Positions 8,566-62,457 of a stretch of 64,000 nucleotides of DNA are shown here, in pieces. Where the stretch lies: assembly GCA_964016885.1 (NCBI GenBank), contig OZ024743.1, positions 243,970,001-244,034,000 on the forward strand, read 5' to 3'. The first letter of the stretch is position 1. Every line of letters begins with the position of its first letter. The translations under genes and the position numbers were made by a program. This stretch comes from Eledone cirrhosa. Its lineage: Eukaryota. The notes beneath the pieces are model-generated. The model was not told where the DNA came from and made no database searches. It was given only the letters and a program-made list of their open reading frames with translations.

Positions 8566-11500
8566 CTATAGGCACATGGTCAGAGTAGGCCCATTCACAC
8601 GAGCCATTCTTGCCACATTCACCCACCTTTTAGCAAATGTACTGGGGGGCAGCACTTCTCTCTCCACCCTCACCCTCCTTTCCAGGTGAAACTTGAAGAA
8701 GTTGATGAGGGATTGGCCGAAGAGAAAAGTGTCTGTCTTTAGTCCTTTCAACCTGGTCCACCATATAATCTCTTTCGCAACTGCCACCAGACAGAGGAAA
8801 ATGTCCTGCTCTTCCTGACCTAAGGAAGGTGGTGGCTCGATCTTCACTATGGACTCAGCCGATAGCCGGATTCGTTCCACACGCGACAGTAGCTGTTCGA
8901 CATAACTCCACAAGTCAGTAATGCACGGACATTGGACAAGTGCGTGCAGAACGGTTTCGTCGTTCTGTGCGCATCTTGGGCAGGTCCGTCTGACAGCACT
9001 TCCGTGCCTGTAGAGTTTATCCCGAACCGGCAGTGCCCCCCGGTAGCACTGCCAAGCGAGGGATTTCTGGAAATTGTCCATCGTCCCCGGCTCAAAAGTC
9101 CTCCGGTACAGACTGGTCAGTTCGACTTCGTCGAGGCCCAAAGCTTCTCCGAGTGCGTCATCGCACTTGCCCACCACTAATCCTCTATAGAACTCGAGAA
9201 TGGAAGTTCCACTGATCGCATTGCCCGCTTGGTAGAGGGCAGTGAGTGCCTGGCAACATTCCAGGTGCCAGTCACCCAGTCTCGGTCTCTTCTTGACCCA
9301 GGACTGCAGCTCAGTCAAAGAAATGAGCTGCGGAAAGGCCCGTCTGATAAACGGCGACCACACCTGTTCACCATTGAGGCAGAATATCTGGAGATGTCGC
9401 AGCCTCAACGCATGTCTGCGCATCATTAGCCACGGCATGCCCAGCCCTCCGTGTAGAGGGTGCTGGCAGCAGATGGACCGCCTCACCAACGGAACTTGTC
9501 CCCTCCACAAGAATTTGAAGAGGAGCCGTTCCAACTTGACGAGGCGCGGACGGGGGCAAGGCACGACGGTTAGGCGGTAGTAGATGACGGACGCGATGTA
9601 CGCATTCGCCACCTCCGCGCGACCTTTCAGTGATAGCTTCCTCCCAGCCCATTTTTGGGTGAGACTGGCTACTCTGCTCGTTACCTCGTCCCAATTCTTT
9701 TCCACCTGGAGGTCTGGTCCGAACCAAACCCCAAGCAACTTTACTGGTCCGTCCGTCCAGCGCCCCACGACGCTGTTGGACGGCATGGGCTTGCCTCTCC
9801 AGGTTCCGAGCTGCAAGCCCACCGACTTTTCCGGGTTAAGTTTGGCTCCTGTCAACCTTTCATATTCCTTCAATAAGGTGCCGACCACCTCGATTTCTGA
9901 GGTGTTCGACACCATCACGGTGATGTCGTCCGCATAAGCCGACACCGCCTTTCCGCGTCCCGGTTCGAGCGGGATGCCCTGCAACAGCTCCAGCAGTAAA
10001 GGCTCGAGAGTCAATACGTACAGAAGGGAAGAGAGAGGGCACCCTTGACGGACCGATCGGGAGATCTGAAACGGTTCCGAGAGGTGGCCATTAATTTTGA
10101 CCACCGAGCAGGTGCCGCTGTGCATTGCAACGATCCAGCTTCTAAAGACAGGGCCGAAGCCAGCTGCTTTGAGGACAAACTCCAGATACCGATGGTCGAC
10201 CCTATCGAATGCTTTCGATTGATCTAAATTGATCAGTGCCCCACCGAAGCCAGGTTTACACCCTACCCTCTCTATGATGTATCGCATGAGGTGGAGATTG
10301 TCGTGTATGGACCTGGCTGGGATTGCGCAGGTTTGCGCCTTCCCAACCAAATCCTCGACGACAAGCGCCAATCTCTTTGCTAACACCTTGGCCAAAATCT
10401 TAAACTCTGTGTTGAACAGAGTTATGGGCCTGAAGTTGTCTAATGTATCCCTCTTGTTCTCGTCTTTCCTTATCAGCGTCACCACTCCCCTGCTCACAGA
10501 ACTGGGAATACTCCCATTCTGCTGCCAGTTACAGTAGAGTGCTTCGAGGAGTTCGGAGAACAAGTCTGGCATATTTACGTAAAGCTTGTAGGGCAGGCCA
10601 TCCAAACCGTGTGACTTGCGCCTCATGCAGCCGACAAGAGCGTCCTGAATTTCGGCTGAAGTAATCGGCCTTTCGCAGCGCTCAGCGTCGACCGTCGAGA
10701 TGCGCGGCAAGCCGTCAATGTAGGGTCTGAAATCCACTACTCTCTCTGACTCGCCACTCTCCCTGAACAACCGAGCAAAGTGCTGGCGAAAGGCCTCACA
10801 CATCCGCTTGGAATCGCTTATCTCGTGTCCGTCTCGGTCCGCCAAAGACCGAATTGTGGTTTTATTACCACGCTGCGCCTCCGCCACGCGGGCCCATCGA
10901 ACAGCTTTAGTTCCCTCGTTTCTCAGCGCACGCGCCTTAGCTCTGACAATGCAACCTTCGTGTTTGGCATTGAAGAAATGGTCTAATGCCATTCTAGCCG
11001 CTAGCACGTCAGTTGCGATGCCACTACAAATAGCCTCGTCTAACTTATCTACCAGCTCCCCCTCCTTTCTATTTTTCTCTAACGCTAGTTCTTTGCTGAA
11101 CTCTATCGAAGTTACTCTAATATCTCTTTTGAGAGCCCCCCACCATCTGTTGTTGATGATCGCCCCTATCAACTTTTGCTTAACTAACTTGTTGACTCGG
11201 TCCCTGTAAGCCTTACGTGCCGGAAATGACATGTTCAGCTTCCAGTAACCCGGTCCTAACCTACGCGTTTTATTTAGGTCGACCGTACAGATCACAAATT
11301 TGTGATCTGAATAGGCGACCGTTTTAAAAAGTGGACAGCCCACACTATTTCTATCTATTTTCCTAATGAAGATTCTGTCTATATACGATCTAGATGACCC
11401 CATTCGGTTGGTCCATGTCCATACTGGCACATTGGGGAAATCTAGTCGATACCTGTCAGACAGTTGGAACTGGCTGAGTAGGTGCTTGAGGCTTTTGCAC

Positions 11501-11981
11501 CCCCCGCTCCTATCGGCTACTCCCACACAATCCCAGCGTGCGTCTAAGATGCCATTCCAGTCCCCCGCTAACAGTAAAGGGCGAGACGTACCCAGAAAGG
11601 TCTCCAGGCACCTAAAGAAGTCAGGTCGTCCGGCCCCTGTAGGGCGTAGACGGCCAGCAGTCTAAAGGCACCACCTTCGCTACTGCTCACATCCAAGACC
11701 ACCAACTTACCGTCCGGGTCCCGGAAGATCGACCTTACCTCAAGATCCAGTCCTTTCCTAAACAGCACTGCCACCCCACCCCCCATTCCCGGCCTGCTAA
11801 CAGATGCGAAGATCTGATAGTCGTCCATAATGGGGGCTAGTTCGCGCGTGTCGGAAATTCTGGTCTCGCTTACGGCAATCACATCCATTTCCAGCGACCG
11901 GAGGTCGTTGAGCAGGCGACCCTGCTTCCAGGGTGACCCCAGGCCGCGAACATTTAAAATTCCTACTCTTAATATGGCCAT
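8566..11981 (-). CDS. Tx1 ORF2: AP endonuclease + reverse transcriptase + C-terminal Cys domain; one frameshift near 11640
   Basis: Motifs LNVRGL, SET, GDWN, IDRIF, SDH (APE); FRPITL, LDQSKAFDRV, VRQGCPLS, YADD (RT); CPRC...H...C. ORFs 11568-11981 and 8566-11526 join if one base is restored at YA(P)TG. Confidence 0.92.
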
Positions 11982-11990
11982 ATTGGTAAG

Positions 11991-13970
11991 CTAAGAGAGA
12001 GAGAGGGAAGGTTTACTTACCTCCCGGGTCTTGTGAAGGTCGGGTGGTTCGACCTCCATGGTTGGTGGGGTTTCTTTTGGGAACCCCTTTAAAAGTCTTG
12101 ATGTGGGTTTCACATTCGGGTTTCCCACGTCTTGAGGAAAGCTCTCTCGAATTTCTTTGAAGGAATTGAGTGACGTTTGGACCAGAAACAAATCTTCTGG
12201 CACGCAAAATGTGCTCATTTCAAAAATCTCCCCCTCTGTTTGAATGTCCTCGCTTCGCGCTAAGAGGGCCATCAGTTTATCGTTGGCCCTTCTGACAAGC
12301 ACGAAATTTTAAACATTTTGTTGGTGTGGTTTTATTTGTTTTCGTTTTGGTGAAGGTGGTGGCGATGGTTTTGGTGGTGTTGTTTCGGGTATGTCTATGT
12401 TTGTTGTAGGTGTGGTGTCTGCAATTTCAGGTATTTGTGTGTTTATTTGTACTTGTGTTTGTTTAGGTTGTTTGCGTTTCGGGGATTGTGGAGGTGGTGT
12501 CGATGTTGCTGATGGAGCTGATGTTATTGGGGAAGTGTTTGCGTTAGTGGTGTCTGTATTTTTTGTTGTGTGTGTTTTTGTGTTTTGTTGGGGCTTTTTT
12601 TTGTGAGTTTTTTTGCACTTTTGGGTTTTCCTTCATCTTCGCTGCTGGAAGACAAAGGGTCTGTGTCTGTGAGTGTCTCTGTGTCTGTGTGTGCGTTTAT
12701 TTTTTTTTTGTCTATGTGTATACTTGGGGGGGGGGGGGGGAGTGGGAGAGCTTTCCTCGTTTTCTCCTTGGATTGGTTTTGGTGTTGGTGGTGATCCGGC
12801 TGCTTTTGATGTTGGTGTCCGTGTTTTTGTTGATGTTTTTGGTGGTGGTGGTGGTGCAGCTTTCCGTGCTGAGACTGGCGTTGGCAACAAAGGAGGTTTG
12901 CGACCCCCTGCATTTTTGCGCTGAGGGCAGAAGGCTTGAAGATGCGTTGCTTCCCCGCAAACGAAGCAGCGTGGCCTTCTTCCGTCAATCATTAGTTGGA
13001 TTGTTGTCCCGTCCTGCAGGCGGGAAAAATCTGGGATGTTATTCATATCCTCCGGTTTCATTTGGAGAAGAATCTCCAAATCCATTCCGCACCAGTCCTC
13101 TCTCTCTGTCCTTTTGATGTCCAGGAGGGTGGTGTCTGTCCCCTCCTCGATTACGCATCCCAGCAGCCACCATATGTTCATTCCTGGTGGGATGCTGGGA
13201 ATGCGTACCTTCACTGTCCTTTTACCCATATAGGACGGATGCATGATAATGCGTTCCGTTCTGCAGGGGGTCACCGAGTGCTTAATAGCGAGGGCCTCGG
13301 TTTTTAACAGTACCGAGATGGTACCGAACTGTTTGCCTCTTGATTTGTACTCTATGTTACTTCCGATGTACTCCAAAGCAGCCTCTACCTCTGCATGGCT
13401 CGCAAGTTCCACTTTTCGTGTCTGCACCGAAATACATCGAAAGAGCACCGTCCTCCTTTGCATGGCCGCTATTGCCTCGTCCGGGATGGTCAGGTTTGCC
13501 CAGGACTTCTCCCGTTTAATTAGCCTCCACGCTTTGGCCAACTGTTCGTCTTTATCGCTAATATCAATATTCAATAAGTGCTTTGTTTTTGCTGCTGCTG
13601 CAGCAAATGTGGTGTTTCTGATACTCTTATTGTTGTTGTTGTCATTCTTGCTGTTGCCAGCGCCATCCTTGTTTACATTGAAGCTGTCGGTGTTATTGTC
13701 GTTATTGCTCTGAGTTGTTGTTGTTGTTGTTGTTGTTGTGGTGGTGGTGGTGGTGGTGGTGGTGGTGGCGGTGGTGGTGATGTCGTTTTCAGATGATACT
13801 GCTGCTATGGCAGAAGGTTGTGATGGTAGCTTTTTAGTTTTGCCTTCACATTCAGTAGAGTGGATGACAGGCATGACTGTAGCCGTCGTAGTCGTGGTGA
13901 AATCTGCAGTGGCTGCCTTTAAACTTTTGACCTGAACGTTGTTTACCGTTTCAAAATCGAAAATTTCCAT
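11991..13970 (-). CDS. Tx1 ORF1 (gag-like nucleic-acid-binding protein), frameshifted in its C-terminal low-complexity half
   Basis: 445-aa ORF 12633-13970 with CFVCGEATHLQAFC (CX2CX4HX4C), poly-Thr/Asn tracts and Pro/Lys-rich segments. The last frame ends at 11991, 9 nt before the ORF2 ATG. Confidence 0.82.
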
Positions 13971-14197
13971 AATTTTCTTTTGGTGGGGAAGCGATTTTTT
14001 TCGAAGTTTAAAAAAAATAAATCTGAATATTCGGGCTTAAAGCCCGAATATTGAGAGGTATCCCTCTCTTTAAATCAAGATGTGTACCTTAAGTTTCGTT
14101 AATGACAAGAAAGTACAAAAAAAAAGACACTTTAAAACAGCTTAAAGCTACGAACCTTTTTCCCCGCAGACTTGTCTGTCTTCACACATGTGCGGCC

Positions 14198-15844: not shown

Positions 15845-18800
15845 TTCGTCTACAGCGTGATAATGCCACACAAAAATCACGTGGAGTGACGGAACCACCG
15901 GAGACGATGAATTCACCGGTGGTTATGTAACCATACATTCGCCAATCGTCGATAAGAGTGTTTAAATGTCGAACCTAGACAGTTCGAATAACGGTGAAAT
16001 GGAGACTAGAATGTCATGTGACAGACTCTCACCCAACAGGTGCTCCCTGGCTCAGCAGCAGGGACCTGGCTGTCAACCAAATACTGCTGGTGTCGGAGGA
16101 AGAAGAAGAAGGAAAGGGACCAGAACCAACTGGACGAAAGAATTGAATAGAACTGTTATGCAATGTTACCTGAAGAGTAACCCCAAGGAGAAAGGCTATA
16201 GGAAACGGATGCATAACATCTGGAACGAGATTGGTCTATTTAAATTAGATGAACAAAAATTGGCCGGGCAGGCTCGGGTAATAAGAACTAATGGGTGGAT
16301 AAGCGAGCTGGAACTGGAGGAACTGAGCAGAGGGATTAGCTTGGAGATGGAGAGTGGAGTATGCCAGGCAAACGAGCCAGTGGGAAATGAAGGTGAAGAG
16401 GTCGAGAGAACGGAGGAACCACCCGAAGCAGACAATGATCTGAATGCTGAGATAAATAATACCTGGAACAGAGATACGGCCACTGAGGAGATGAATGCTG
16501 ATGGGCTAGGACAAGATTTGGTTGATATCCTAAACTTAGTGGTAGATGAATTGAACAATGATAGTGGGAGACCTATGAACCTAAGATTTGTAGACAGGAA
16601 AAAGTTAAAAGAAACAACAGCTAAGGTAAACAAAGTCATCCCATACCTTGAGGCGAGGAGCCTTCACCAGTGCAACAATATCCTCAAAGCAACAACAAAT
16701 ACGGCAAGGAAACTACTTGGTATAAAAGCGAGAGGAAACAACAGACAAGAAAGAGCAGAGCCTTGGTGGAAGAAACGAGTGGTCAAATCAGGGAAATGAG
16801 AAATGACATTGGAAAGCTTGAGTCCCTACTGAATGGGACACTAAAAAACATAGACACTAAAAATAGACTGGAAATAAAGTACAAAACTAGGAGGAAAAAG
16901 CTAAATATTATCATAGAGGAACTGAAGCAACGCATTGAAGCAAAGAGTGCAAAAATCAGGCGATACGAGAACAGAGTCAGCCAGTACAGACAGAACCGCA
17001 TGTTCGACAACAACCAGAAGATGCTGTTTGGACAGCTTGAAGGGAAAGAAAGAGGCAACGACTTGATCCCTGAGGCGGAACAAACTAAAACATTCTGGAG
17101 AGGAATATGGGAGCAGGATGTTAAACATAATGACCAGGCAGTGTGGATTGAGACAGTACAGAAGGAGATTAGTGAACAGGCACACCAACAAACTGATTTG
17201 AGTATCACAGTTGAAACTCTTAAGGGGCAGGCCAAAAAACTAACCAACTGGAAATCACCAGGCCCAGATGGTGTGCAGGGGTATTGGATTAAAAATATAA
17301 CATCCCTCCACCCGAAACTGACAACCATGTTCAATGACTGCTTGATGTCATGTGAGGTACCAGAGGGTTTGACAAAAGGTACCACAGTTCTGATAATGAA
17401 AGACCGAATCAAGGGTAATGATGTTACCAACTATAGACCTATCACATGTCTGTCCGTAATGTGGAAACTGTTGACAAGCATTATGTCTGAGGAAATCTAC
17501 CATCACCTCCACACAAACAACTTGTTGCCGGACGAACAGAAAGGATGCCGAAAGAAGTCACGTGGTACAAAGGACCAGCTACTTATTGATAAGGTGGTAA
17601 TGAGGAATTGCAAGAGGAGACACACTGGTCTTGCCATGGGATGGATAGACTACAAAAAGGCATTTGACATGGTGCCTCATTCTTGGATCACCAAAAGCCT
17701 GGAGATCTTCAAGGTGGCAGATAACATCAGACAGTTGTTGGGCAAAAGTATGAAGTCCTGGGAAACAGAGTTAACATCAACTGGAGAATCCTTGGGAAGC
17801 GTGAAGATCAAGAGAGGTATCTTCCAGGGATATAGTCTATCCCCTCTGTTGTTTGTCCTTGCCCTGATGCCCCTGATCAGTGTACTGCGAAAAGTGAGAG
17901 CAGGATACAGGTTGGGAAAGGGAGGGCTTACCATCAATCACCTCCTCTTCATGGACGATCTTAAGCTCTTCGGGAAGAGTGAGAGGGAGTTGGATGTGCT
18001 TGTTGACACTGTCCGTATTTTCAGCAATGATATATGTATGCAATTTGGTATTAGTAAGTGTGGAGTCATTGTGATGAGGAGGGGTAAGTTGAGCAGAAGT
18101 AACGGAATCCAGGTACCAACAGGTGAGATGATAAAGGAAATTGACTCTGAAGAAGGATACAAGTATTTGGGCGTTCTGGAGGCTGATGATATCAAGAACA
18201 AAAAAAATGAAGGAATTGATAAGAACTGAATACATTCGGAAAGTAAGGAGCGTATTAAAGTCACATCTGAACAGTAGGAATGCCATAAGTGCAGTAAATT
18301 CCCGAGCTGTGTCTATTATTAGGTACAGTGCGGGAATTCTGAGATGGAATGTTGCTGAACAAAAAGAAATGGATAGGAAGACTAGGAAGCTATTGACTAT
18401 CTACAACATGTTCCACAAGATGAGTGATGTCGATAGACTCTACTTAAGGAGATCTGAAGGTGGAAGAGGTCTTATCAGCATAGAGGACTGTGTTCAGATG
18501 GAGAAAAACAACCTACACAAATACGTGACTGATAGTAAGGAGCCAATGCTCAGAACTGTACTGAAGGAGAGGACCATAGACCAGGGGATCTCCAAGGAGG
18601 AAATAACAGCAAGGAGAAAGAGCAGCCTTCAGGAAAAATCCCTTCATAGTACCTTCTTTGAGAAAACTGAATTCAGAGATCCACAGACATGGAACTGGTT
18701 GAAAAGAGGAGACCTTCAAAAGGCTACAGAAGGAATGTTAATGGCTGCGCAAGAGCAGGCCCTCAAAACGAAGTGGTTGAAACACCATATTTACAAGGAG

Positions 18801-19473
18801 GAGGCTAGCCTACTGTGCAGGATCTGTGGAGAGAGAGAGAGGAGACTGTGGCTCACATTGTATCCGAGTGTAAACACCTAGCCCAGACTCACTATAACGG
18901 CTGGAGACTTGATGTGATGGGCAGGGTGATCCACTGGCACCTATGCAAAGTAAACAATTTACCACATTCTGAGAAGTGGTATGAGCATAAGCCAGAGGCG
19001 GTGATAAAAAACGATCAGGTGAAGGTGCTGTGGGATTTTAGGATACAGACGGACAAGAAACTGGAACACAATAGACCTGACCTGGTGGTTGGGGGCAAAG
19101 AAAAAAGATCGTGCCTGATTGTGGATGTGGCCTTCCCATTCGACACGAGAGTGCAAGAGAAGGAGAGGGAGAAAATTAACCGATACCAGGACTTAAAGTG
19201 GGAGGTAAAAAGGATTTGGAACTGCCATGAAGTCAAAGTGATCCCGATTGTCATAGGCGCACTAGGGACTATCTCAAAAAGTTTCCAGGGATGGTTAAAG
19301 AAAATTGGCCCCTTCACGCTTTTTGGAACGCTTCAAAAGGCATGCTTGCTGGGAACAGCAAGAACCCTCCGATACGTCCTGAATATCTGAGTCTGCAGGT
19401 AGTGGCTTGATATTCATTTCAACAAACTTTCCAGTTAACTAACATCAACGACTGAGACTCAAAGAGTAATAAC

Positions 19474-21040: not shown

Positions 21041-21055
21041 AATTAAGATCTATAT

Positions 21056-21210
21056 TAATTTAACGCTTGATAGAGTAAGAAAAGAGTTCTAACGTTTTGG
21101 GCATTAGTCTGTCATCAGAAGATAGAATGTGAGATAAAAGAAGAAATAGAAAGAGATACGAAAATAAGAGCAAGAAGAAACAGGAAAATAATTTTACGGA
21201 AGGAAACTCC
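21056..21210 (-). mobile_element. Diverged solo Penelope pseudo-LTR with decayed hammerhead
   Basis: Homologous to the 52.7-kb LTR: cttCTGATGAcagactaatgcccAAAAcgttagaa...tcaagcgtta, with GAAA mutated. Confidence 0.65.
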
Positions 21211-22020: not shown

Positions 22021-22057
22021 TATACATATATACCCATTCTGTTATTACAGCAGCAGA

Positions 22058-22142
22058 GATCCGACGAGCTTTTGATCCCAGAGTCGGACCAGATCGATAT
22101 TAATCGAACCTTGAGCTGATCAATAGCGAAACGCGCGTCACC
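22058..22142 (+). ncRNA. Hammerhead-like motif with variant core (CCGACGA) and long stem II
   Basis: CCGACGA gcttttgatc...gatcaatagc GAAA cgcgcg TC. Stem III is palindromic, stem I is weak. Truncated homologue at 34010-34145. Confidence 0.55.
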
Positions 22143-22181
22143 AATCAATAAACGTAATGAAGGCTTAACAAATCGTCCTTG

Positions 22182-29213: not shown

Positions 29214-29450
29214 ATGATATTAAATAAATGGACGTCGACCGAGGGTGGTCGACGTAGATACAAGTCGCTAAAATACCGGCCGCCCTCTTGTTTAAACACC
29301 AAAGATTTTTTATCTGATATATTCCTTCGTTATATTTTGAATTACCTGATGATGTAACCGGATTCATACTGAACCCGGCCATTCAAATGATCATAGTAAA
29401 ATAAACCTTTCAAGGATTTACACCAGAACATGCCTCCTGTTATTTTGTAA
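29211..29450 (+). mobile_element. Solo PLE-type LTR with decayed hammerhead
   Basis: Lies between (TA)n tracts. gaattacCTGATGAtgta...tactGAAcccggccattc. 5' hairpin acgtcgacc/ggtcgacgt. Confidence 0.5.
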
Positions 29451-29551
29451 TATATATATATATATGTGTGTGTTTAATGGTAGCTATGATGCTTCCATAG
29501 GCGGTATGCCAGTTGAGCACTCTAAGTTCTTACAGAGCAGAGTGTGATATA

Positions 29552-29800
29552 ATATAAAACGAAAAATCAGTGATGCATCTGGACTAAATTTATTGTGTGT
29601 TACAATTGTTTCGTCGGACACTGGCAATAATTTTGGAACAAATTTGTTCCGAAATTATTGCCAGTGTCCGACGAACCTGCAGTTATAGAATCAGACAGAT
29701 CCATACAATGATCGTGTCTCGAGCTGTCTGCCGGCGAAACAATTGTAACACACAATAAATTGAGTCCAGATCAGATGCATCACTGATTTTTTGTTTTATA
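29552..29800 (+). mobile_element. Fold-back PLE-type LTR palindrome with variant hammerhead (29664-29751)
   Basis: Centre ggaacaaatttgttcc. Right arm: gtgt CCGACGA..long stem II..GAAA caattg TA acac. Left arm is the inverted copy lacking stem II. Confidence 0.7.
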
Positions 29801-30118
29801 TATATATATATATATGGGAGTGCGAAAGATATATACAGCGACAAGCAAATTGAATACCACCAAAATACCTCGTAGTATTTATTCCCTGTGCGTTGACAGA
29901 CAATACCTAGTTATTCTCGCCATCGGAAGTGCATTAAAACAATGCTTGATCCTTTAAAAAACCATATCCAACGACAATATCGTTAAAAATTTGCCAGATA
30001 AGATTATATATAAAACAAAAATATACAAATTGGTCGTTCAAGAAAATCTGATAAATTAGTTCGAATGCTGACGGGAAACGACATTTTTCTATTTCCGGCA
30101 GATATACTTTCATTTATA

Positions 30119-30197
30119 CAGGGTGTCTAAAAAAAATGTATACACACTTCAATATCAATCTAATCAAAGTATGTATACATTTTTAGGGGACACACTG
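30119..30197. mobile_element. Tc1/mariner-type mini-MITE
   Basis: TA|cagggtgtc...aaaaatgtatac / gtatacattttt...gacacactg|TA. Confidence 0.7.
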
Positions 30198-30572
30198 TAT
30201 ATTAAATTAAAGTTGACTGGATAGTTAATCAGATACCGTTAGCTTGAAACTGATGTCACTTAACCCATATCTGAATCTTTGGACACACGCACACACACAC
30301 ACATACACACACATACATGTTACATACAAGTACACACACATATACATACACACACACACAAATATATAGAAACGACGGTAAGCTGTTACTAATTATTCAA
30401 CATAGTAAGCAGGAGTGTAGATAATGTCTAATCCACATAAACCCAGTGGTCAAGCTTCAACTGTTTTAGTTTGAGCGTCGGGTTTATGTGTATTAAATTG
30501 CATTGGTACAACTTCAAAATACCGAACTGACCAAATGTTACGTTCACGTTTTAAGCAATTTGCTACAAATTT

Positions 30573-32007: not shown

Positions 32008-32841
32008 CAGGGGTCGGCAACCTTTTGGAGAGAGAGGGCCAAACAGCTATGCAGTGTCATGGAGGAGGGCCATGTTATTAAATATGTAAATAAATTTTCT
32101 GGAGGTTTAAAGCAAAACAAGAAATTTAATATAATTTTATTTTAACAAGGCCCCTTATTTTACTGCAGGAATAACAAAAAAGAAAAAAAAGAAAAAAAAA
32201 AAACAACTACAAATACATTCAACAAAAAGAAAAAGCAAATTCCTTGCTACAAACGAAATACAGTTAGAAATGGTAAATGATTTAATGAGACACTTGTATC
32301 TGCTTATTGTGCGATAACTTCTCCACATCAGGTGAAATATTTATCGATGACAGAAGCAAAACATCATCCAGGTGGTCGTCACGCAACCTTGTTCTTAAAT
32401 GACTTTTACTATATTTCATTTTGGAAAAAAGTTGTTCACAAGCATATGTACTTCCAAATAATGATATCATCAGTTTCGCATTAGTCAAGATGTTTTTATA
32501 TTTTCCGCTTGGCAATATATATTTCTTGTAGAAGTCAGCAGTGGATTCGAACTGAAATTTCGATTTCAAAGATTCATCGCACTGTAAGTCAATTAACTCC
32601 AACTGATATTCTTCTGCCACTTGCTCCACATCTGTTTCGTAAGGAGTACCAAATAACTTAAATAGAGTTCCATATTGCCGGAAGTCAGCAAAACGAGAGG
32701 AAAACTCGCTTCTCAAATCCTTAATAGAGCTCACAAAGATGTCTGCTATTGTATCTCTCTTGTGATTTTGGAGACTTGGGAAATGAGAGTAGTTTCCTTT
32801 TAAAAGTTGTGATTCCCACAGTCGAATTTTTGTCTCAAGAA
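32008..32841 (-). mobile_element. hAT (Charlie/SPIN-like) transposon 3' portion with transposase C-terminus
   Basis: TIR caggggtcggcaacct. ORF 32282-32734 has SLFGSTYACEQLFSKMKYSKSHLRTRL (hAT dimerisation region). tctagga is duplicated at both sides. Confidence 0.88.
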
Positions 32842-33054
32842 TCTAGGAGAAGGCAACTCAGGAAACTGGGATAACTCCGACATAAAACCTGCGGCTCAGT
32901 AGTTACCGATGATGTTGATCTTTTCTTCTTTTCGGATTATAGCTACTGTCGCTTACAGAGTGGGATTGGCTTAGTGCACACTTTTGTCCCATTTTTAAAA
33001 ACATTTTCACGCACAGGCGTTGGACGATAACATTAATTGATAATTATTAATAAT

Positions 33055-33919: not shown

Positions 33920-34008
<89 letters not shown>

Positions 34009-34144
34009 CCACCAAAATTACGGAGTCGGGCTCGATCAATACAGATCGATACAGATCGAAACATGAGCTGATCGGTGGCAAAACGCGCGTCACCAACCAA
34101 TAAACGTAATGAAGGAGTAACCACTCGTCTTTGTTTTATTTTTG

Positions 34145-35079: not shown

Positions 35080-36725
35080 ATCATCCACTGATATGGGTTC
35101 TGAACATGTACACACGCTTAGGTCACATTAAAGTCAACTGCAAGAATCGGTGATAAGTTACAAACAAGTGTGGACTTTGCTACCACTTACACTACCGTCG
35201 ATGATATAGACAGGGAAATCATCGCTCACTACCGGAAAACCCTCCTTTGTAACAACAGAGTGCCTGGGCAAATAAGTCAACTTCAGTCCTATTCGACGTC
35301 TCCATGGGATCGTTTGACAGTGCTGACGTATGCGACTTGGTTGGCCTATTTATTTTAGACATATTACGTGTTAGATTCCCGGACTTCCACACAGGAATAT
35401 ACTGCGACGATGGTCTGCCTTATCGAGCCATAAAAGTGGTCACGACCTCGACCGGTTTAAAAAAGACTTAGCTTCTACCTTTAATGAGTTAGGTCTTAGG
35501 ATAACAGTAGCCACCAACCTCTCTAGCGTAGATTTCTTAGACATTAATTTAGACCTTCGCACACACACCTACAGACCCTTCCATAGCTAAACGAAAAACT
35601 CAACTACATTCACAAGGACTCATGCCACCCTCCCACTGTTTTTAGAAACTTCGTAAATAATATCAGTACTAGAATCTCAAACCTCTCCTCTAATAAGGCT
35701 ATCTTTGACAGGGCGGCACCCTACTATAACACGGCGTTAGCTAACAGCGGCTTCTCACAACCTATCACTTACTCTCCCACTAACAACAACAGCAATAAGA
35801 AAAGAAAGCGTAACAATAGACAAACTATCTGATTCTCTCCTCCCTCCTCACTCAACGTTAAAACCAATGTAGGCAAAAAATTTCTAGCCCTCTTAGATAG
35901 ACACTTTCCCATAGGTCATAAATACCGCTCCATCTTTAACCGACACAAAGTAAAACTAAGGTACTCTTGCACTAAGAATATGAAGGACCACATCACCAAC
36001 AGCCCTAAGAGCAACACCCCACCAGGGTGCTCTTGCCGTAAGCCCGAAGCTTGTCCCCTTTAACAGCAATGTAACACACCCGCTGTAGTTTATGAAGTGG
36101 TCACTTCCAACCGACCAAATCAACCACAGGAGGTCAAATCCTATGTGGGTATGGCGACCTTTAGGTACTCGGACAGACGAAACTCGCGAGTCACGTATGG
36201 TGCCTCAAGGACTCAAGTATAGACTACTCCATTCAATGGAAAGCCATCACTAAGTCCAAGCCATACGCAAGGGGCAATCCGTCGTGTGGACTATGTATTG
36301 ATAACGAATAAATATTCTAAAGTGATTGCACAATAGTGATTGCCTAAACACGAGAAATGAATTCTTCACACGTTGTCCACACGTCTGGAAACACCTCTTA
36401 CATAACTACAAAGCTCCGGATTGAATTACAACAACATCCTAATTTTCTAATCAACCAGAAACTTTCGGACTTTCGCAGTTATCTCCCTTACACCTCTCGC
36501 ACGCAATTTAGTATTGCCTGTGTGAAGTGATCGTTTCTGAGCATGCGCATTCGTACGGTTGTCCTTCCTTTTCCGTATAACCATGTCCATTACGAGCTGA
36601 GGATCCGCTAAGGTGAAACAATTGTTCTCGCTATGGTGAACTAACTGTTGTGTAACCACTTCTACCTAACTCGTCCCATGGACCGAGTGCTCTACCACTA
36701 CGGATATTACCTTCCAGTGTTCCAC

Positions 36726-36996: not shown

Positions 36997-37040
<44 letters not shown>

Positions 37041-37044
<4 letters not shown>

Positions 37045-37234
37045 TATAGAAACGCTTCTACAGGACTAGAACTGTTTCATTCGTGAGAAATCATCAGGAA
37101 GCTGACCTGATGATTTCTCACGAATAAAACAGTTCTAGTCCTGTAGAAGATTTTCTATATTAAAACATTTATACTCTGCATTGTATTGAGTACCTTACTT
37201 ACTGTGGTTACACCCGATTGAACCCGGAATAACA
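37041..37234 (+). mobile_element. Fold-back solo PLE LTR with hammerhead cores on both strands
   Basis: 58-bp arms at 37041-37098 and 37106-37163. CTGATGAtttctcacgaat(G/A)AAAcagttcTAgtc. In (TA)n. Confidence 0.72.
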
Positions 37235-40600: not shown

Positions 40601-40731
40601 GTGTTCTGGAGTGCTGTACAATGAGTTTGGGTTAAATGGGAGAGGCATGGAGTTCAGGATACTGTTTTTGTTATCTGAGTGAGATAGATAGTGTTGTTAC
40701 TATGGTGTTGTAGTAGTGTTCTGCGTTGCCG

Positions 40732-43700
40732 CATATATGTTTGTACCATATATGTTTGTACCATATATGTTTGTACCATATATGTTTGTACCATATATGT
40801 TTGTACCATATATGTTTGTACCATATATGTTTGTACCATATATGTTTGTACAATATGTTTGTACCATATATGTTTGTACCATATATGTTTGTACAATATG
40901 TTTGTACCATATATGTTTGTAACATATATGTTTGTACAATATGTTTGTACCATATATGTTTGTACCATATATGTTTGTACCATATATGTTTGTACCATAT
41001 ATGTTTGTACCATATATGTTTGTACAATATGTTTGTACCATATATGTTTGTACCATATATGTTTGTACAATATGTTTGTACCATATATGTTTGTACCATA
41101 TATGTTTGTACCATATATGTTTGTACAATATGTTTGTACCATATATGTTTGTACCATATATGCTTGTACCATATATGTTTGTACCATATATGTTTGTACC
41201 ATATATGTTTGTACAATATGTTTGTACCATATATGTTTGTACCATATATGTTTGTACCATATATGTTTGTACCATATATGTTTGTACCATATATGTTTGT
41301 ACAATATGTTTGTACCATATATGTTTGTACCATATATGTTTGTACCATATATGTTTGTACAATATGTTTGTACCATATATGTTTGTACCATATATGTTTG
41401 TACCATATATGTTTGTACCATATATGTTTGTACCATATATGTTTGTACAATATGTTTGTACCATATATGTTTGTACCATATATGTTTGTACCATATATGT
41501 TTGTACCATATATGTTTGTACAAAATGTTTGTACCATATATGTTTGTACCATAGATGTTTGTACAATATGTTTGTACCATATATGTTTGTACCATATATG
41601 TTTGTACCATATATGTGTGTACCATATATGTTTGTACCATATATGTTTGTACAATATGTTTGTACCATATATGTTTGTACCATATATGTTTGTACAATAT
41701 GTTTGTACCATATATGTTTGTACCATATATGTTTGTACCATATATGTTTGTACCATATATGTTTGTACCATATATGTTTGTACAATATGTTTGTACCATA
41801 TATGTTTGTACCATATATGTTTGCACCATATATGTTTATACCATATATGTTTGTACCATATATGTTTGTACCATATATGTTTGTACCATATGTTTGTACC
41901 ATATATGCTTGCACCATATATGTTTGTACCATATATGTTTATACCATATATGTTTGTACCATATATGTTTGTACCATATGTTTGTACCATATATGTTTGT
42001 ACCATATATGTTTGTACCATATATGTTTGTACCATATGTTTGTACCATATATGTTTATACCATATATGTTTGTACCATATATGTTTGCACCATATGTTTG
42101 TACCATATATGCTTGTACCATATATGTTTGTACCATATGTTTGTACCATATATGTTTGTACCATATATGTTTGTACCATATATGTTTGTACCATATATGT
42201 TTGTACAATATGTTTGTACCATATATGTTTGTACCATATATGTTTGTACCATATATGTTTGTACCATATATGTTTGTACAATATGTTTGTACCATATATG
42301 TTTGTACCATATATGTTTGTACCATATATGTTTGTACCATATATGTTTGTACAATATGTTTGTACCATATATGTTTGTACCATATATGTTTGTACCATAT
42401 ATGTTTGTACCATATATGTTTGTACCATATATGTTTGTACAATATGTTTGTACCATATATGTTTGTACCATATATGCTTGTACCATATATGTTTGTACCA
42501 TATATGTTTGTACCATATATGTTTGTACAATATGTTTGTACCATATATGTTTGTACCATATATGTTTGTACCATATATGTTTGTACCATATATGTTTGTA
42601 CCATATATGTTTGTACAATATGTTTGTACCATATATGTTTGTACCATATATGTTTGTACCATATATGTTTGTACAATATGTTTGTACCATATATGTTTGT
42701 ACCATATATGTTTGTACCATATATGTTTGTACCATATATGTTTGTACCATATATGTTTGTACAATATGTTTGTACCATATATGTTTGTACCATATATGTT
42801 TGTACCATATATGTTTGTACCATATATGTTTGTACAAAATGTTTGTACCATATATGTTTGTACCATAGATGTTTGTACAATATGTTTGTACCATATATGT
42901 TTGTACCATATATGTTTGTACCATATATGTGTGTACCATATATGTTTGTACCATATATGTTTGTACAATATGTTTGTACCATATATGTTTGTACCATATA
43001 TGTTTGTACAATATGTTTGTACCATATATGTTTGTACCATATATGTTTGTACCATATATGTTTGTACCATATATGTTTGTACCATATATGTTTGTACAAT
43101 ATGTTTGTACCATATATGTTTGTACCATATATGTTTGTACCATATATGTTTGTACAATATGTTTGTACCATATATGTTTGTACCATATATGTTTGTACCA
43201 TATATGTTTGTACCATATATGTTTGTACCATATATGTTTGTACAATATGTTTGTACCATATATGTTTGTACCATATATGTTTGTACCATATATGTTTGTA
43301 CCATATATGTTTGTACCATATATGTTTGTACAATATGTTTGTACCATATATGTTTGTACCATATATGCTTGTACCATATATGTTTGTACCATATATGTTT
43401 GTACCATATATGTTTGTACAATATGTTTGTACCATATATGTTTGTACCATATATGTTTGTACCATATATGTTTGTACCATATATGTTTGTACCATATATG
43501 TTTGTACAATATGTTTGTACCATATATGTTTGTACCATATATGTTTGTACCATATATGTTTGTACAATATGTTTGTACCATATATGTTTGTACCATATAT
43601 GTTTGTACCATATATGTTTGTACCATATATGTTTGTACCATATATGTTTGTACAATATGTTTGTACCATATATGTTTGTACCATATATGTTTGTACCATA

Positions 43701-45102
43701 TATGTTTGTACCATATATGTTTGTACAAAATGTTTGTACCATATATGTTTGTACCATAGATGTTTGTACAATATGTTTGTACCATATATGTTTGTACCAT
43801 ATATGTTTGTACCATATATGTGTGTACCATATATGTTTGTACCATATATGTTTGTACAATATGTTTGTACCATATATGTTTGTACCATATATGTTTGTAC
43901 AATATGTTTGTACCATATATGTTTGTACCATATATGTTTGTACCATATATGTTTGTACCATATATGTTTGTACCATATATGTTTGTACAATATGTTTGTA
44001 CCATATATGTTTGTACCATATATGTTTGCACCATATATGTTTATACCATATATGTTTGTACCATATATGTTTGTACCATATATGTTTGTACCATATGTTT
44101 GTACCATATATGCTTGCACCATATATGTTTGTACCATATATGTTTATACCATATATGTTTGTACCATATATGTTTGTACCATATGTTTGTACCATATATG
44201 TTTGTACCATATATGTTTGTACCATATATGTTTGTACCATATGTTTGTACCATATATGTTTATACCATATATGTTTGTACCATATATGTTTGCACCATAT
44301 GTTTGTACCATATATGCTTGTACCATATATGTTTGTACCATATGTTTGTACCATATATGTTTGTACCATATATGTTTGTACCATATATGTTTGTACCATA
44401 TATGTTTGTACCATATGTTTGTACCATATATGTTTGTACCATATATGTTTGTGCCATATATGTTTGTACCATATATGTTTGTACCATATATGTTTGTACC
44501 ATATATGTTTGTACCATATATGTTTGTACCATATATGTTTGTACCATATGTTTGTGCCATATATGTTTGTACCATATATGTTTGTGCCATATATGTTTGT
44601 ACCATATATGTTTGTACCATATATGTTTGTACCATATGTTTGTACCATATATGTTTGTACCATATGTTTGTACCATATATGTTTGTACCATATATGTTTG
44701 TACCATATATATTTGTACCATATATGTTTGTACCATATATGTTTGTACCATATATGTTTGTACCATATGTTTGTACCATATATGTTTGTACCATATATGT
44801 TTGTTCCATATATGTTTGTACCATATATGTTTGTACCATATGTTTGTACCATATATGTTTGTGCCATATATGTTTGTACCATATATGTTTGTACCATATG
44901 TTTGTACCATATATGTTTGTACCATATGTTTGTACCATATATGTTTGTGCCATATATGTTTGTGCCATATATGTTTGTGCCATATATGTTTGTGCCATAT
45001 ATGTTTGTACCATATATGTTTGTACCATATATGTTTGTACCATATATGTTTGTACCATATATGTTTGTGCCATATATGTTTGTACCATATATGTTTGTAC
45101 CA
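40732..45102. repeat. 4.4-kb minisatellite: 15-bp ATATATGTTTGTACC with 13-bp variants and higher-order structure
   Basis: Direct tandem periodicity. Diagnostic variants recur at 891-, 1314- and 2205-bp offsets. Confidence 0.98.
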
Positions 45103-45303
45103 TTCCAGGCCTGAGTACAGCAAATTTCTTCCAGTGAGAGGAAGAATCGATCCCAGTACTAGACTGGTAATTTTTTTATCGACCTTGAAGGGATGAAAGG
45201 CAAAGTTGACCTCGGCGGGATTTGAACTGAGAGAGCAGAGAACCGGAACAAATACCATAAAGCATTCTATCTGATGTTCTAACGACTCTGTTAATTCGCC
45301 GCT
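45103..45303 (-). mobile_element. SINE family A (diverged) whose 3' end runs into the satellite
   Basis: ggatgaaaggcaaagttgacctcggcgggatttgaact core/B box. Confidence 0.8.
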
Positions 45304-48118: not shown

Positions 48119-49587
48119 ACACACACACACATACACACACACACACACACACATATATATAGAGAGAGAATCGTTGAGTGATAGGAAGTCTGATAATTTG
48201 AAAGACGCATATATGTTTGGCATATATATATATATATATAGAATAAGGAAAAGCGAAGTAGTTTCAGATGTTCAAGTCCTTTAATAATAATGCTGTGATA
48301 TATATTTCAATGGCGACACTGGCCACACTGTTCTGTGTGCGAGTGTCGTGACATCATCAGACAGCTTGTTACATAATAAGGTTATGTTTCCGAGGCATGG
48401 TTATGTTGAATCGACATGGGAACGGATGAAATGCGTGCTTTTGGGTTTATCACCCGTTCCCCTGTGAGTACCAACTCACCCCCACCGGTCTGCGCGTGCG
48501 CATGTCCGAAGGAAGTTGACCATTAGCTACCGCAGATTTCAACGAAATTCGCTTAGTCAGTTCACCCTCTCAGTGACACAATGGCCCGTACCATAGTTTA
48601 CTGCTACCCATCTCGACTGTGGTAGTCAGTCGAAAGCCAGAGGGGGTGGGAGAGTGTTAGTTTTTACAGGTCATAATACTACCTTTCACCTAGCGTGGAC
48701 AGTACGACTGACCATCAACTCAAAGGGAAAATAAACTTAATTCTAAGTATCATGATTTTACATTGTAAGTTAAGAGTGAGAGTTGGAAATAAAAATTAAA
48801 GTCCTAAATCAAGTATCAGAAATTATAAATTAAACAATTAAAAAATTAACAATTAGTAATTAAAAGTTAGAAATTTTTTTCAAGTGAGAATTCGGATTGA
48901 GGTGAGTAAAAAAATATAGATTGAAGTGAGTAAATAATATGGAGAGAGATGTTTAAGTAAGAAGTTCTGAGAGGGGTTCTAGTGTCACAGTTACTCTATC
49001 CACATATTGAACGACAGTGCCGTACATTAGAACGGAGGGTAAGCTACAGCATTCAAGGCATTAGTCAATCTGGTACAGTCATAATTTCCATCACATGGAA
49101 CAATACCAAAGAAAAGCAGACATAGAAGAAATAATGCAAAAACACGGTGTATATATGTGGACGCAAGCATAGGTCTGTTGTTAAGAAGTTTGCTTCATAA
49201 TCCCGAGGTACAGGATTTGATGTTATTGGAAACAGCCTTTTGAAGGAAATTGGGTTGATGGAAGCTATGTGGAAGCGCCTCGGAAACATTATGCCTGTAA
49301 TTACAGCCGATTGTCGTTTATGACATCAGCCTGTAAGTCGGGTAAAAATACCTCTAAGGACAGAAAGCAGTGGACAGTGATTGCTATGGAGAGAATGAAA
49401 GTGAGGTGGGTGAAAGGTAGATGAAACGTATAGGTGATTGCGAGAGGTGTGTGTAGGCACGTAGGATTGATAAGTAAAGAAGAAAGAAAGGAAGACAAGT
49501 GGAGATTAAGGTTGCAATAAGTTTCGAGTTATTGTAAAGTTATAAGCCTTACAAGACGATACAAAACCACAAACGCATCCAAGACCT
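47697..49587. repeat. About 285-bp inverted repeats bracketing 1.3 kb
   Basis: 47697-47980 is the reverse complement of 49303-49587 with few differences; near-identical spurious ORFs at 47782 (+) and 49498 (-). Confidence 0.9.
48292..48365 (-). ncRNA. Hammerhead ribozyme motif with extended stem II, in a probable solo PLE LTR (about 48241-48720)
   Basis: gctgt CTGATGA tgtcacgacact..cacac/gtgtg..agtgtcgccatt GAAA tatata TC acagc. 5-bp stem I, palindromic stem III, LTR ends in (TA)n. Confidence 0.8.
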
Positions 49588-51641: not shown

Positions 51642-52222
51642 TGATCAATGGCTCTTAAATCCTATGATGAAATCTGGCTAACCCTCTCTAGGTTTAAATA
51701 CAGTCGACGTCTTCCAGAGAAATATATATTGCAATGTTCACGCCAGAAAAATAGCGTGAATATTACAATACAACACAATAGGAGGGAACATGATAATAGT
51801 AGCACTGATGATGTTGCAGATGTGCAACGAAAGAACTTTGTTAGACTATATATATATATATTTATATCTGTATTTTTAACCGATGGCCAGTCAATGATAA
51901 ACATTGATTGCCAAATAAATTAACTATGGAGATATAAAAGATGCAGAAACGAAAACCAACCAAACAGTGAGTGTGTTCTGTTATTATTTCTGGCAATATT
52001 TTTACAACAATATGACCCTTCCCAAGTATAACAATATTTGTTTCGACACACGATTTCATATAAAAAACCTTGCAAAACAAATTCATCACCGTATATATAT
52101 ATATATTTGTGTGTGTGAGTGTATGTGTTGTGTATGTAAAAGGTAAACAGAAATAACAACACAATCGGTACAGTAAATGGAAGGAATATATTAGGTTAAC
52201 GCTTGATATAGCAGGAAGAGGG

Positions 52223-52258
52223 TCTTAACGTTTCGGACGCTAGTCCTTCATCAGAAGA
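52223..52258 (-). ncRNA. Minimal hammerhead ribozyme (inverted LTR)
   Basis: tctt CTGATGA a ggac tagc gtcc GAAA cg TT aaga. Confidence 0.8.
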
Positions 52259-52435
52259 AAGAATGAGAAATAAGATAGATTGAGGGGACGGGCAGGATGG
52301 AATTGGAAAAAATGTCTTTAGATAAAAATAATATATATATAACATACTTTTGCTCATAGCTTCGTACTTACATACACACACAATCTTTTACTCACATATA
52401 CACACACATTTCTTCTTAGCTTCGTACAGACCTAT

Positions 52436-52527
<92 letters not shown>

Positions 52528-52771
52528 TCATGCTTACGTACGTGCTCAAGTATAGCTCTTTTTAAAAACGTTTTTTTTCTTTCCATTTCAGGTAGACGCG
52601 GTCCATCATCCGCTTTTCTAAAAAACAAATCATACACAAAACGCCAGCACCAACAGTTTTGCAAGAGATGTCAACATGAATGGACCTGTTATTTTTATCT
52701 AACGACATTTTACCCAATTTTTTCAAATTCCATCCCGCCCGTCCCCTCAATCTATTTTATTTCTCATTCTT

Positions 52772-52807
52772 TCTTCTGATGAAGGACTAGCGTCCGAAAC
52801 GTTAAGA
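52772..52807 (+). ncRNA. Minimal hammerhead ribozyme (5' LTR)
   Basis: tctt CTGATGA a ggac tagc gtcc GAAA cg TT aaga. AACGTT palindrome suits dimeric folding. Confidence 0.82.
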
Positions 52808-55800: not shown

Positions 55801-56451
55801 TGGTCATTCTTCCCTAAATGTTTCAGTCCTTGGTGTCCTTTTACATCATGTATCACAGGCCTCGCGCACCAGGACTGAACAAAGTCTGATTCACCGCCTT
55901 GGGTCCTATTCCCCTCTTGGACTAAACTCACTTCCCCAATTTCTCTAATACCCCATCCATTATCACACCCCTAGATTCCTATCGCTTTCTCTTGATCATT
56001 AGAAGCTTCTCTTACAACTAATACATGCTGACTATATATATGCTCACTCCACTTTTCCCTTCACTGCTCTGTATACACACATACACACCCTTATATTAAC
56101 ATACTTTCGCTCATAGCTTCGTACTTACATGCACACACACTCTCTTACTCACATATACACACACATTTCTTCTTAGCTTCGTACGGACGTATAACACACA
56201 CACACTCATACACACATACACGTGCTTACGCACGTGCTCAAGTATAGCTCTTTCTACAAAACGGCTTTTTTGTCCATTTCAAGTAGACGCGGTCCATCAT
56301 CCGCTTTTCTAAAAAATAAATCATACACAAAACACCAGACCAACAGTTTTCCAAGAGATGTCAACATGGATGGACCTGTTATTTTTATCTATAGACATTT
56401 TTTCCAATTCCATCTCGCCCGTCCCCTCAATCTATCTTATTTCTCATTCTT

Positions 56452-56486
56452 TCTTCTGATGAAGGACTAGCGTCCGAAACGTAAGA
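56452..56486 (+). ncRNA. Minimal hammerhead ribozyme (3' LTR), 1-nt deletion at the cleavage site
   Basis: Same as 52772 but GAAAcgtaaga. Confidence 0.7.
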
Positions 56487-56571
56487 CCCTCTTCCTGTTA
56501 TATCAAGCGTTAACCTAATATATCTCTTCCATATACTGTACCGATTGTGTTGTTATTTCTGTTTACCTTTT

Positions 56572-56667
<96 letters not shown>

Positions 56668-57775: not shown

Positions 57776-58312
57776 CTGTTATATGCAGCTAACAGTTGCT
57801 GTTGAGCAATGGGACCATTGCAGAAAACAGCGATGTCATCAGCATATTGAGCCTCCCGTATAAAATCATGAAGTATCTTTGTTTTGGACTTGAGGAGACG
57901 AAGATCAAAAATATCACCATCATATCATTTGATCTTCGTTTCCTCAAGTTCAAGACAAAGATACAATTTCTACGATTTCGATCTGCCAGCGCTAATCCGA
58001 CAAAAACCAGCATGCCTGGAAATTATGTAATGCTAGTATGCATTATGTATATTGGCTGGAATCGCGTCTTCGGCCGGAGTTTGCCTCCTTGGAATAGAAA
58101 GATGCGTTAAGCTACCTTGTATACCGCGCTGAAGGGCATAAGTGAGTGTAGTAGTAAACCTACACTTTCAGTGACACGCGACTTCATATTAAAGAGGAGG
58201 TAAGCCAGATCTGACTATTTACAGGAAACACGTTGGTGTTGATTCAAATTGAAAAAGAGAACACGCCAGAACCATTCAACCATATATATATATATGTGTG
58301 TGTGTGTATACG

Positions 58313-59090: not shown

Positions 59091-59275
59091 AATTACTGTT
59101 GCAGCATATATATAAACTTAATTTTATTGGCATATTACAATCGTTTCGATATCGGTCAGCACCAGCACAGGGTATAACCATAATGACAGGGGGCCGACTC
59201 TTTCTTGACATCTCATCAGATATGCGAGTTTATATGTACAAAGACACATTCAAACATTTTGATATATATATATAT

Positions 59276-62109: not shown

Positions 62110-62194
<85 letters not shown>

Positions 62195-62195
<1 letters not shown>

Positions 62196-62405
62196 GTATG
62201 TAAAAGGTAAACAGAAATAACAACACAATCGGTACAGTATATGGAAGGAATATATTAGGTTAACGCTTGAAATAGCAGGAAGAGGGACTTAACGTTTCGG
62301 GTGCTAGTCCTTCATCAGAAGAAAGAATGATAAATAAGATAGATTGAAGGGACGGGCGGGGTGGAATTGGAGAAATTGGAAAAAATGTCTTTAGATAAAA
62401 ATAAC
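62195..62405 (-). mobile_element. Solo LTR of the Neptune-like PLE with weakened hammerhead (62288-62321)
   Basis: Near-identical to 52131-52332. Stem II ggac/accc is mismatched. Confidence 0.85.
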
Positions 62406-62457
62406 AACTACGTGTGTGTGTGTAGGTAGTGATGTATGTATATGCATATATATATAT

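Follow-up and report, generated by a model that had tools for sequence, protein, structure and literature searches.

The window, i.e., the whole 64,000-nt (64-kb) stretch of Eledone cirrhosa DNA that was analysed, is AT-rich, microsatellite-rich, and animal-type, with LINE and Penelope-like fragments. At 29553-29797 lies a palindrome whose centre (29642/3) is the self-complementary sequence AAATTT (29640-29645), without a spacer. Both arms are 5'-truncated copies of one sequence: arm comparison and the sequence itself show that the right arm (29643-29797, + strand) contains a whole hammerhead-like motif, while the left arm (29553-29642, - strand) is without its stem II. A sequence-only reading had described the left arm as the same sequence minus 63 nt. 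Comparison of the arms bore this out, since the left arm, read on the minus strand from 29642 to 29553, stands apart from the right arm by a 63-nt gap (29676-29738), three substitutions, and a duplication of 5 nt that the left arm lacks (CAGAT, 29767-29776, + strand; also seen in a contig of run X2 covering 29743-30190). A (TA)n microsatellite followed by a short (GT)n borders the left end (29450-29465) and another (TA)n microsatellite borders the right end (29797-29816). The 3' tail of the family, approximately 75-80 nt in length, is present in the left copy only (29470-29552, - strand), as defined by unbroken contig pieces and depth.

Several other repeats occur in the window. L1/Tx1-like LINE frames were recognised by eye at 8566-14036 (- strand) and 1-1557 (+ strand), comprising an endonuclease, a 1031-aa reverse transcriptase (RT), and an upstream zinc-knuckle frame. 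A frameshifted non-LTR element, likewise recognised by eye, occupies 15966-19390 (+ strand) and has an RT and a C-terminal restriction-like endonuclease motif. The C-terminal fragment of a hAT transposase is located at 32282-32842 (- strand; PF05699, E 0.00075, just under the curated cut-off), and a satellite of about 4.5 kb at 40654-45196 consists of short units in higher-order repeats, with several frames open.

Contigs of four out of ten sequencing runs (X1, X2, X4, and X6) were aligned to 29230-30280 at 80% likeness. X1 and X2 represent one sample (organism A) and X6 represents organism C; X4 (two contigs, low depth) was left out. There were 4,307 aligned contigs from X1, 4,613 from X2, and 39 from X6. 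Summed depth, which does not equal copy number, was 185k/223k (X1/X2) at 29735 and 6.6k/7.3k at 29671, compared to approximately 5-15 in the flank at 29842-30093. As these depths lie three to four orders of magnitude over the unique flank, the motif belongs to a large, high-copy family. Summed depth was 96k-131k over the tail (29470-29552) compared to 285k-316k at 29554-29589. Contigs ran unbroken over 29480-29612/17, approximately 80 nt past the stop of the right arm, and the element thus reaches about 80 nt left of 29552, to approximately 29470-29480, at one end only. Family contigs also ran gapless through the long form of the motif (29629-29744, 29640-29771, and 29664-29771, and 29664-29765 in X6); given that they are unbroken, the family as such possesses stem II, and the shorter left arm is the derived form. 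The X2 contig covering 29743-30190 matched with no other letters and one gap (depth 5.24), indicating that the private changes of the right arm and its flank are real in this sample.

Of the 15 joints listed within contigs, with six further joints falling outside the listing, 11 were of the head-to-head type, in which a piece of the left arm meets a piece of the right arm and the point of contact differs between joints. These 11 joints, each seen in one contig per run and with a short side of fewer than 30 letters in 8 cases, would fit other head-to-head pairs. The joint connecting 29609 to 29702 (X1, one contig, depth 12.8) is head-to-head with its centre at the apical GATC of stem II, which is what fold-back of a nascent cDNA at the hairpin would give. 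The joint connecting 29573 to 29640 (X1 and X2; short side of 22 letters) reflects a head-to-head copy in which one arm is seemingly without the whole hammerhead region. A separate high-copy repeat adjoins the palindrome at 29335-29445 (+ strand; summed depth up to 450k-473k) and contains CTGATGA at 29346. At 29356, 29379, and 29384, almost every contig departs from the window, and the alleles seen there make a canonical hammerhead with GAAA and the palindromic TGATCA; the window copy is decayed. Between TA runs at 30094-30201 is a high-copy short repeat with an internal inverted repeat (summed depth 65k-73k).

The (TA)n flanks, the inverted truncated copy, and the one-sided tail lead us to read this element as the 3' remnant of a Penelope-like retroelement, which is the likely identity of the high-copy family. 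Endonuclease-bearing Penelope-like elements are described as leaving inverted 5'-truncated copies, a one-sided tail of 30-40 bp, and insertions at (TA)n targets (Craig 2021, PMC8557442). Here, the inverted 5'-truncated copy is head-to-head, as in the 11 of 15 listed joints, and the target is (TA)n or AT-rich, with loose contig ends of TA runs too. The 3' tail is found on one end only and is longer than published, at about twice that length. The hammerhead motif is near the 3' end of the repeat, and the cut predicted for it falls 50 nt short of the right end and approximately 130 nt from the tail end. Within the 64-kb window, there was no telomerase-like RT or GIY-YIG frame linked to this family, one of two C4 families, as we call those with C at core position 4. 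Four exact family strings had no matches in the Naiad, Chlamys, and Hydra consensus files obtained from PMC8557442, in which line breaks or divergence could hide one. Penelope membership is therefore an assignment from architecture alone. We dropped a CCGACGA...GAAA stretch in Chlamys-1_meVir, helix I not being evident by eye, and a metagenome scan with a 21-nt family string returned four loci that were all unrelated, AT-rich matches of 21-22 nt without the core. A non-LTR retrozyme was also rejected, since the window contains no second same-strand family copy and hence no head-to-tail tandem of 150-400-nt repeats that each carry a hammerhead.

Two other loci in the window show related organization. 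At 37035-37170, a second head-to-head inverted pair stands beside (TA)n; it has the same architecture but belongs to a different family, both arms start from a CTGATGA core, and their short stem II has U.U as the basal position. A decayed Penelope-like element was recognised by eye at 52092-56622 from its DKG, IDD, and LYIGQT motifs, and includes direct repeats (52502-52899 and 56194-56578) and an inverted truncated copy (52092-52331 and 56379-56622). It contains a minimal hammerhead, CTGATGAAGGAC...GTCCGAAAC, and more copies occur at 62188-62406 and 21045-21139. Pfam and PDB searches with the Penelope-like frames at 53.6-55.9 kb gave no match.

With respect to insertion, two cDNAs may have been primed on opposite strands of the (TA)n target, from start sites approximately 80 nt apart (one at the tail end, the other about 80 nt inside). 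Both would have stopped at AAATTT and annealed at that self-complementary stretch. A plain fold-back would need a further loss to account for a tail confined to the left and a stem II confined to the right. In the anole element (Poseidon element PAc), both target strands are cut and extended at AT-rich sites and two internal RT starts define the tail (Frangieh 2024, PMC11167929). Priming of the PAc type would yield an inverted pair with a one-sided tail. PAc differs in having a canonical hammerhead that cuts only with protein and a tail of 30-40 bp, compared to about 75-80 nt here.

The sequence-only reading had also claimed that the right arm carries every hammerhead element in order, with C for U4, and the sequence agrees: all type-I hammerhead elements are present in order, with C at position 4. 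The order on the + strand is GTGT (29664-67), CCGACGA (29668-74), 61 nt (29675-29735), GAAA (29736-39), CAATTG, TA (29746-47), and ACAC (29748-51). The core, C3-C4-G5-A6-C7-G8-A9 (29668-29674, + strand; from the sequence and the family alleles), departs from the canonical C3-U4-G5-A6-N7-G8-A9 by the C at position 4, in the window copy and in the family, and keeps C3-G8, G5, and A9. The 5' strand of helix I (29655-29667, + strand) consists of 6 bp, a CCA internal loop, and 4 bp, with its predicted partner at 29748-29758. This predicted 4+6-bp helix has a pair probability of 0.93 in the isolated motif; the complementary 5' strand of the copy at 22061 offers one pair only. The 61-nt stem II (29675-29735, + strand) contains a nine-position basal helix, a 2-nt bulge, 3 bp, a 2x1 loop, 2 bp, a bulge, and an apical hairpin. 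Alone, it is predicted to fold at -19.1 kcal/mol (z -2.26), a value matched by 2 of 200 shuffles. The base of stem II (10.1-11.1) is A.C rather than the usual G-C that is found at 22061 and 59219.

The 3' portion of the motif (29736-29747, + strand) contains G12-A13-A14-A15.1, the self-complementary helix III ACAAUUGU (29739-46), and a GUA triplet; G12-A13-A14, the A15.1-U16.1 pair, and an NUH triplet are thus all found in the right arm. Cleavage is predicted after A17, in GUA at 29745-47. Helix III is an 8-nt self-complementary sequence in both C4 families, with different centres (ACAAUUGU and ACGCGCGU), and in fold predictions of the monomer its 15.1-16.1 pair has a probability of 0.03-0.05. 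An AATAAA (29754-29759, + strand) lies inside the 3' strand of helix I and likewise follows the motifs at 22061 and 59219. A short-stem hammerhead-like motif (CTGAGGA) at 36590-36635 (+ strand) has the same ACAATTGT helix III as the motif at 29668. Rfam gave no matches at gathering in the window and no hammerhead models among 18 rows at E<=10; its miRNA-model matches at 29596-29696, far under gathering, were set aside as an effect of the palindrome only. Read-through RNA of the 29553-29797 locus is predicted not to fold as a hammerhead: the predicted structure is a hairpin of -145.6 kcal/mol in which helix I has a probability of 0.00 and stem II is extruded. Given this predicted long hairpin and the lack of a second same-strand family copy, the palindrome copy itself is likely inert.

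U4 of the hammerhead core is thought to be nearly invariant, and a U4-U7 contact, given no weight here, may exist in the full-length hammerhead crystal structure. It had been left open whether the family consensus might be CUGA, in which case C4 would be a private mutation of the window copy. We checked this on the contigs of X1, X2, and X6, using the complete 40-row table. The only C>T place at 5% or more of depth was 29379, not 29669; U4 accounted for less than 5% of depth among contigs covering 29669. C4 is therefore a common family allele and not private to the window copy, as shown for those copies that extend as far as the core and pass the 80% likeness cut-off. Depth at the core was approximately 3.5% of that at GAAA, with copies lost by truncation or divergence. 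Other core alleles were found: A6U made up 24% (X1) and 15% (X2) of depth and was carried by the single X6 contig covering the core, C7A made up 17% in both X1 and X2, C11.1G reached 10%, and the letters inserted at one joint read CCGTCGA. In stem II, T29715C (26%/23% of depth) breaks one apical pair. From G12 to AATAAA, there were no variable sites in 25 nt compared to 11 of 61 in stem II (mean density 0.11 per site; P ~0.05), and no variant reached 5% within 29736-29760. The A6U subfamily argues for relaxed catalysis, and A6U, the A.C at 10.1-11.1, and T29715C together argue against a strong ribozyme.

A second family with the same architecture is represented at 22057-22155 (+ strand), containing CCGACGA (at 22061), a 60-nt stem II, helix III ACGCGCGU, and a GUC triplet. 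Unguided MAFFT aligned the motifs at 29668 and 22061 without gaps except for one in the apical loop. With the stem II register anchored on A9 and G12, five pairs are doubly changed and all five are Watson-Crick in both families, consistent with helix II closing the core. In this comparison, which involves two sequences only and bulge positions set by viewing both, 87.5% of 32 cells were paired, compared to 21.9-43.8% on six slid registers, and 14 of 500 shuffles scored as high. The basal strands share 3/9 and 2/9 letters and the inner motif 8/13 and 8/9. Among copies of the 29668 family, both partners vary at three pairs, and their alleles preserve pairing (P ~0.013 for random placement of 11 sites): 29681/29729 (A-U or G-C), 29683/29727 (A-U, G.U, or G-C), and 29686/29726 (U.G, C-G, or U-A). 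The remaining variable sites in stem II comprise three unpaired ones, 29715, whose change disrupts a pair, and the position at the base, itself unpaired. When scored on the window copy's own predicted fold, the tally was two pair-keeping out of three (P 0.014-0.035). Phase was visible in one X6 contig only, which apparently combines G29681 with C29729 and C29686 with G29726 (judging from equal depth and 8 differences). The question of whether stem II covaries, raised by the sequence-only reading, was thus addressed both within the family and against the 22061 family, and compensatory change was found in each. It is this change, rather than the deletion, that indicates that stem II forms.

We built a covariance model from the 29668 and 22061 copies and scanned the window unfiltered, yielding 10 matches at E<=5. 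These were the two training copies, 34005-34107, 59120-59223 on the minus strand, the palindrome itself (29585-29678, minus strand, which was discounted for this reason), and five weak matches (E>1). The copy at 34005-34107 (+ strand; E 3.8e-08) is a 5'-truncated relative of the 22061 family in which the core is missing and GAAA has become AAAA. The third relative, at 59120-59223 (- strand; E 6.2e-05, a rough value), has a canonical CUGAUGA core and a 65-nt, partly decayed stem II. As this relative is outside the training pair, the long-stem scaffold exists both with U4 and with C4. A CCGAAGA sequence at 58073 (minus strand) was rejected as a relative, having no stem II fold (z -0.27) and being missed by the model. 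At 48309-48360 (- strand) is a hammerhead-like motif whose core is canonical and whose stem II measures 45 nt (z -3.10), with the palindromic TATATA and a 5-bp helix I; it too was missed by the long-stem model and is probably of another type.

These results also bear on whether the hammerhead look could be due to chance, in a MITE-type DNA transposon with a TA target or through the insertion of 63 nt into the right arm with duplication of an 8-bp target. A 250-bp palindrome between TA runs, and a direct repeat alike at 7 of 8 positions around the 63 nt, are what such events would leave. The gapless family contigs through the long form speak against them, however, as does the unrelated-looking 22061 family, which keeps the same stem by compensatory change. 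Moreover, depth falls steeply toward the centre, the centres of joints vary, and the ends are unequal, unlike fixed terminal inverted repeats. We regard this explanation as very improbable and largely refuted.

The deletion in the left arm is exactly 63 nt (29676-29738) and removes stem II together with one copy of a repeat. The gap involves the repeats CCGACGAA (29668-75) and CCGGCGAA (29731-38), which agree at 7 of 8 positions, with CGAA exact; the sole remaining 8-nt repeat at the deletion joint in the left arm is CCGACGAA (29610-29617, - strand; joint between 29610 and 29609). The sequence-only reading had taken this deletion as indirect evidence of a stem II fold in the template. Although both ends of the deletion coincide with the helix base, this is a single event using one of 13 exact repeats of at least 4 nt lying at least 20 nt apart in 29646-29760, two of which, including the pair used, reach 7/8. 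As one event at one of 13 possible repeats, the skip carries little weight and is weak evidence of stem II folding. RT jumps between direct repeats across structure are documented (PMC10275267). We lean slightly toward loss of the left arm's stem II by an RT jump across the folded helix, in which one cDNA would have slipped from CGAA at 29735-38 to CGAA at 29672-75. Of the 11 listed head-to-head joints, as many as 7 pick up again within stem II, and one of these has a diverged core in its intervening letters.

Loss after insertion, by replication slippage across a single-stranded DNA hairpin, appears less probable. Stem II is predicted to fold as DNA too, on either strand (-7.6 kcal/mol), and the changes that separate the arms since insertion (three substitutions and the duplication) imply time enough for a later loss. 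However, the RNA helix is far stronger (-19.8 versus -7.6 kcal/mol as DNA), and the joints resuming inside stem II hint at RT stalling there. It is improbable that the gap is an assembly or sequencing error within the palindrome. The gap is known only from this assembly, no contig piece bridges it among the 26 listed of 9049, and pieces 11, 23, and 24 stop at 29617, the end of the repeat. Yet full-length family copies would stop there as well, the piece table covers 26 of 9049 rows, there are four further differences between the arms, and the X2 contig contains the private changes of the right arm.

Taken together, we read the locus as a head-to-head pair of 5'-truncated 3' ends from a high-copy, likely Penelope-like family whose RNA is predicted to form a type-I hammerhead with family-level C4 and a covarying 60-nt stem II, the left stem II having likely been lost by an RT jump. 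We place the probability of this reading at approximately 0.6.

Whether the motif cuts is a separate matter. In the source element, helix III would be stable only between two copies, as an 8-bp ACAAUUGU duplex, and a slow, likely protein-assisted cut after GUA may take place in tandem transcripts. Measurable cleavage by the source-element motif is predicted at a little under even odds. A somewhat less probable proposal holds that the stub and fold are the same but the ribozyme is relaxed or dead family-wide, with the long stem kept for protein binding or RT positioning and the core letters drifting, possibly held by an overlapping frame. The A6U and C7A subfamilies and the A.C at the stem base favour this proposal. 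So do the statement that U4C 'considerably decreases activity in vitro' (PMC3088659) and the finding that hammerhead mutants had no effect on insertion of the anole element in vitro (PMC11167929). Against it, the stretch of 25 nt from G12 to AATAAA has no variable sites where the mean density is 0.11 (P ~0.05), and the palindromic helix III and the NUH triplet are kept in both C4 families. As for the overlapping frame, both C4 families have one that runs open across the core and on through the 5' strand of stem II (...SDEPAVIESD... and ...SDELLIPESD...). TCC GAC GAA and TCT GAT GAA both encode S-D-E, such that C4 and C7 fall at silent positions. However, there is no third-codon preference (2 of 9 sites silent in 29660-29704, by eye) and the frame is short (approximately 23-24 codons in the window); a putative S-D-E coding role is a lead only. 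The long stem is under structural selection whether or not the motif cuts.

The metazoan Penelope-like type-I hammerheads (PMC4209133) share with our motif the type-I topology, a short helix I, a small palindromic helix III for which dimerization is predicted to be required, and dispersed truncated copies with opposite-strand pairs; core variants (U3-A8) also occur there. They differ in having a helix II of 6-8 bp, G10.1-C11.1, and a CUGANGA consensus core, compared to C4, an A.C base, and a multi-segment stem II of about 60 nt here. There were no matches to ccgacga in one of the two supplement files of Cervera and De la Pena 2014 (PMC4209133). Hammerheads of the Hydra-clade and PLE-X elements (PMC8557442) resemble ours in their (TA)n targets, the motif near the 3' end, the AC-NN-GU palindromic helix III, and, in many rows, a non-Watson-Crick stem II base (U.U or U.C). 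Given how common these are in the Hydra-clade set, an A.C at the base of stem II is no bar. In the same source, Penelope-13_HM has an attached inverted 5'-truncated copy and the spike-moss PLE-X1 has a long stem II region (approximately 50 nt), whereas the core is ctga in all 34 rows of File S2. By resemblance, the motif at 29668 appears most like the Hydra-clade set and similar to the dimer-type metazoan Penelope hammerheads. The U4C hammerhead that occurs naturally in a viroid (cited in Perreault et al. 2011, PMC3088659) has the same core change, with lower in vitro activity and infectivity allowed; it differs in that the viroid variant has a short stem II and is not a common allele of genomic families. 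The motif is thus likely a natural variant of a known self-cutting RNA, with cleavage only predicted.

Neither the inverted pair nor the microhomology skip is new as a phenomenon, and it is the family-level C4 on a conserved long-stem scaffold, not the single deletion, that is the notable part. In the literature searched on Penelope-like and hammerhead elements, insofar as it was accessible, this combination of family-level C4 and a 60-nt stem II was not found, although prior cases may exist. The core search described in PMC8557442 used cuganga and a spacer of 7-17 nt, which would miss both C4 and the long stem II. A broader and more speculative proposal, which we consider unlikely, posits a whole class of Penelope hammerheads whose stem II, 60 nt long, is internally conserved and in which a C4/C7 core, with U6 in some cases, is tolerated or even favoured. 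Its inner motif (YAG-AR-UC-RG / CU-Y-GA-G-CUR) would dock an element protein or helix I and so rescue the weakened core. The ribozyme would then be protein-gated, with a core that also serves as S-D-E coding sequence. Such a class would have been missed by descriptors, may be present in some 'hammerhead-less' Penelope families, and would make recurrent stem II truncation or skipping a trace, left in the genome, of the fold at the time of reverse transcription. The present findings show what the published descriptors (cuganga, spacer <=17 nt) overlook, and the natural series on one scaffold (U4, C4, and C4 with U6) lets one ask whether selection acts on cutting or on shape.
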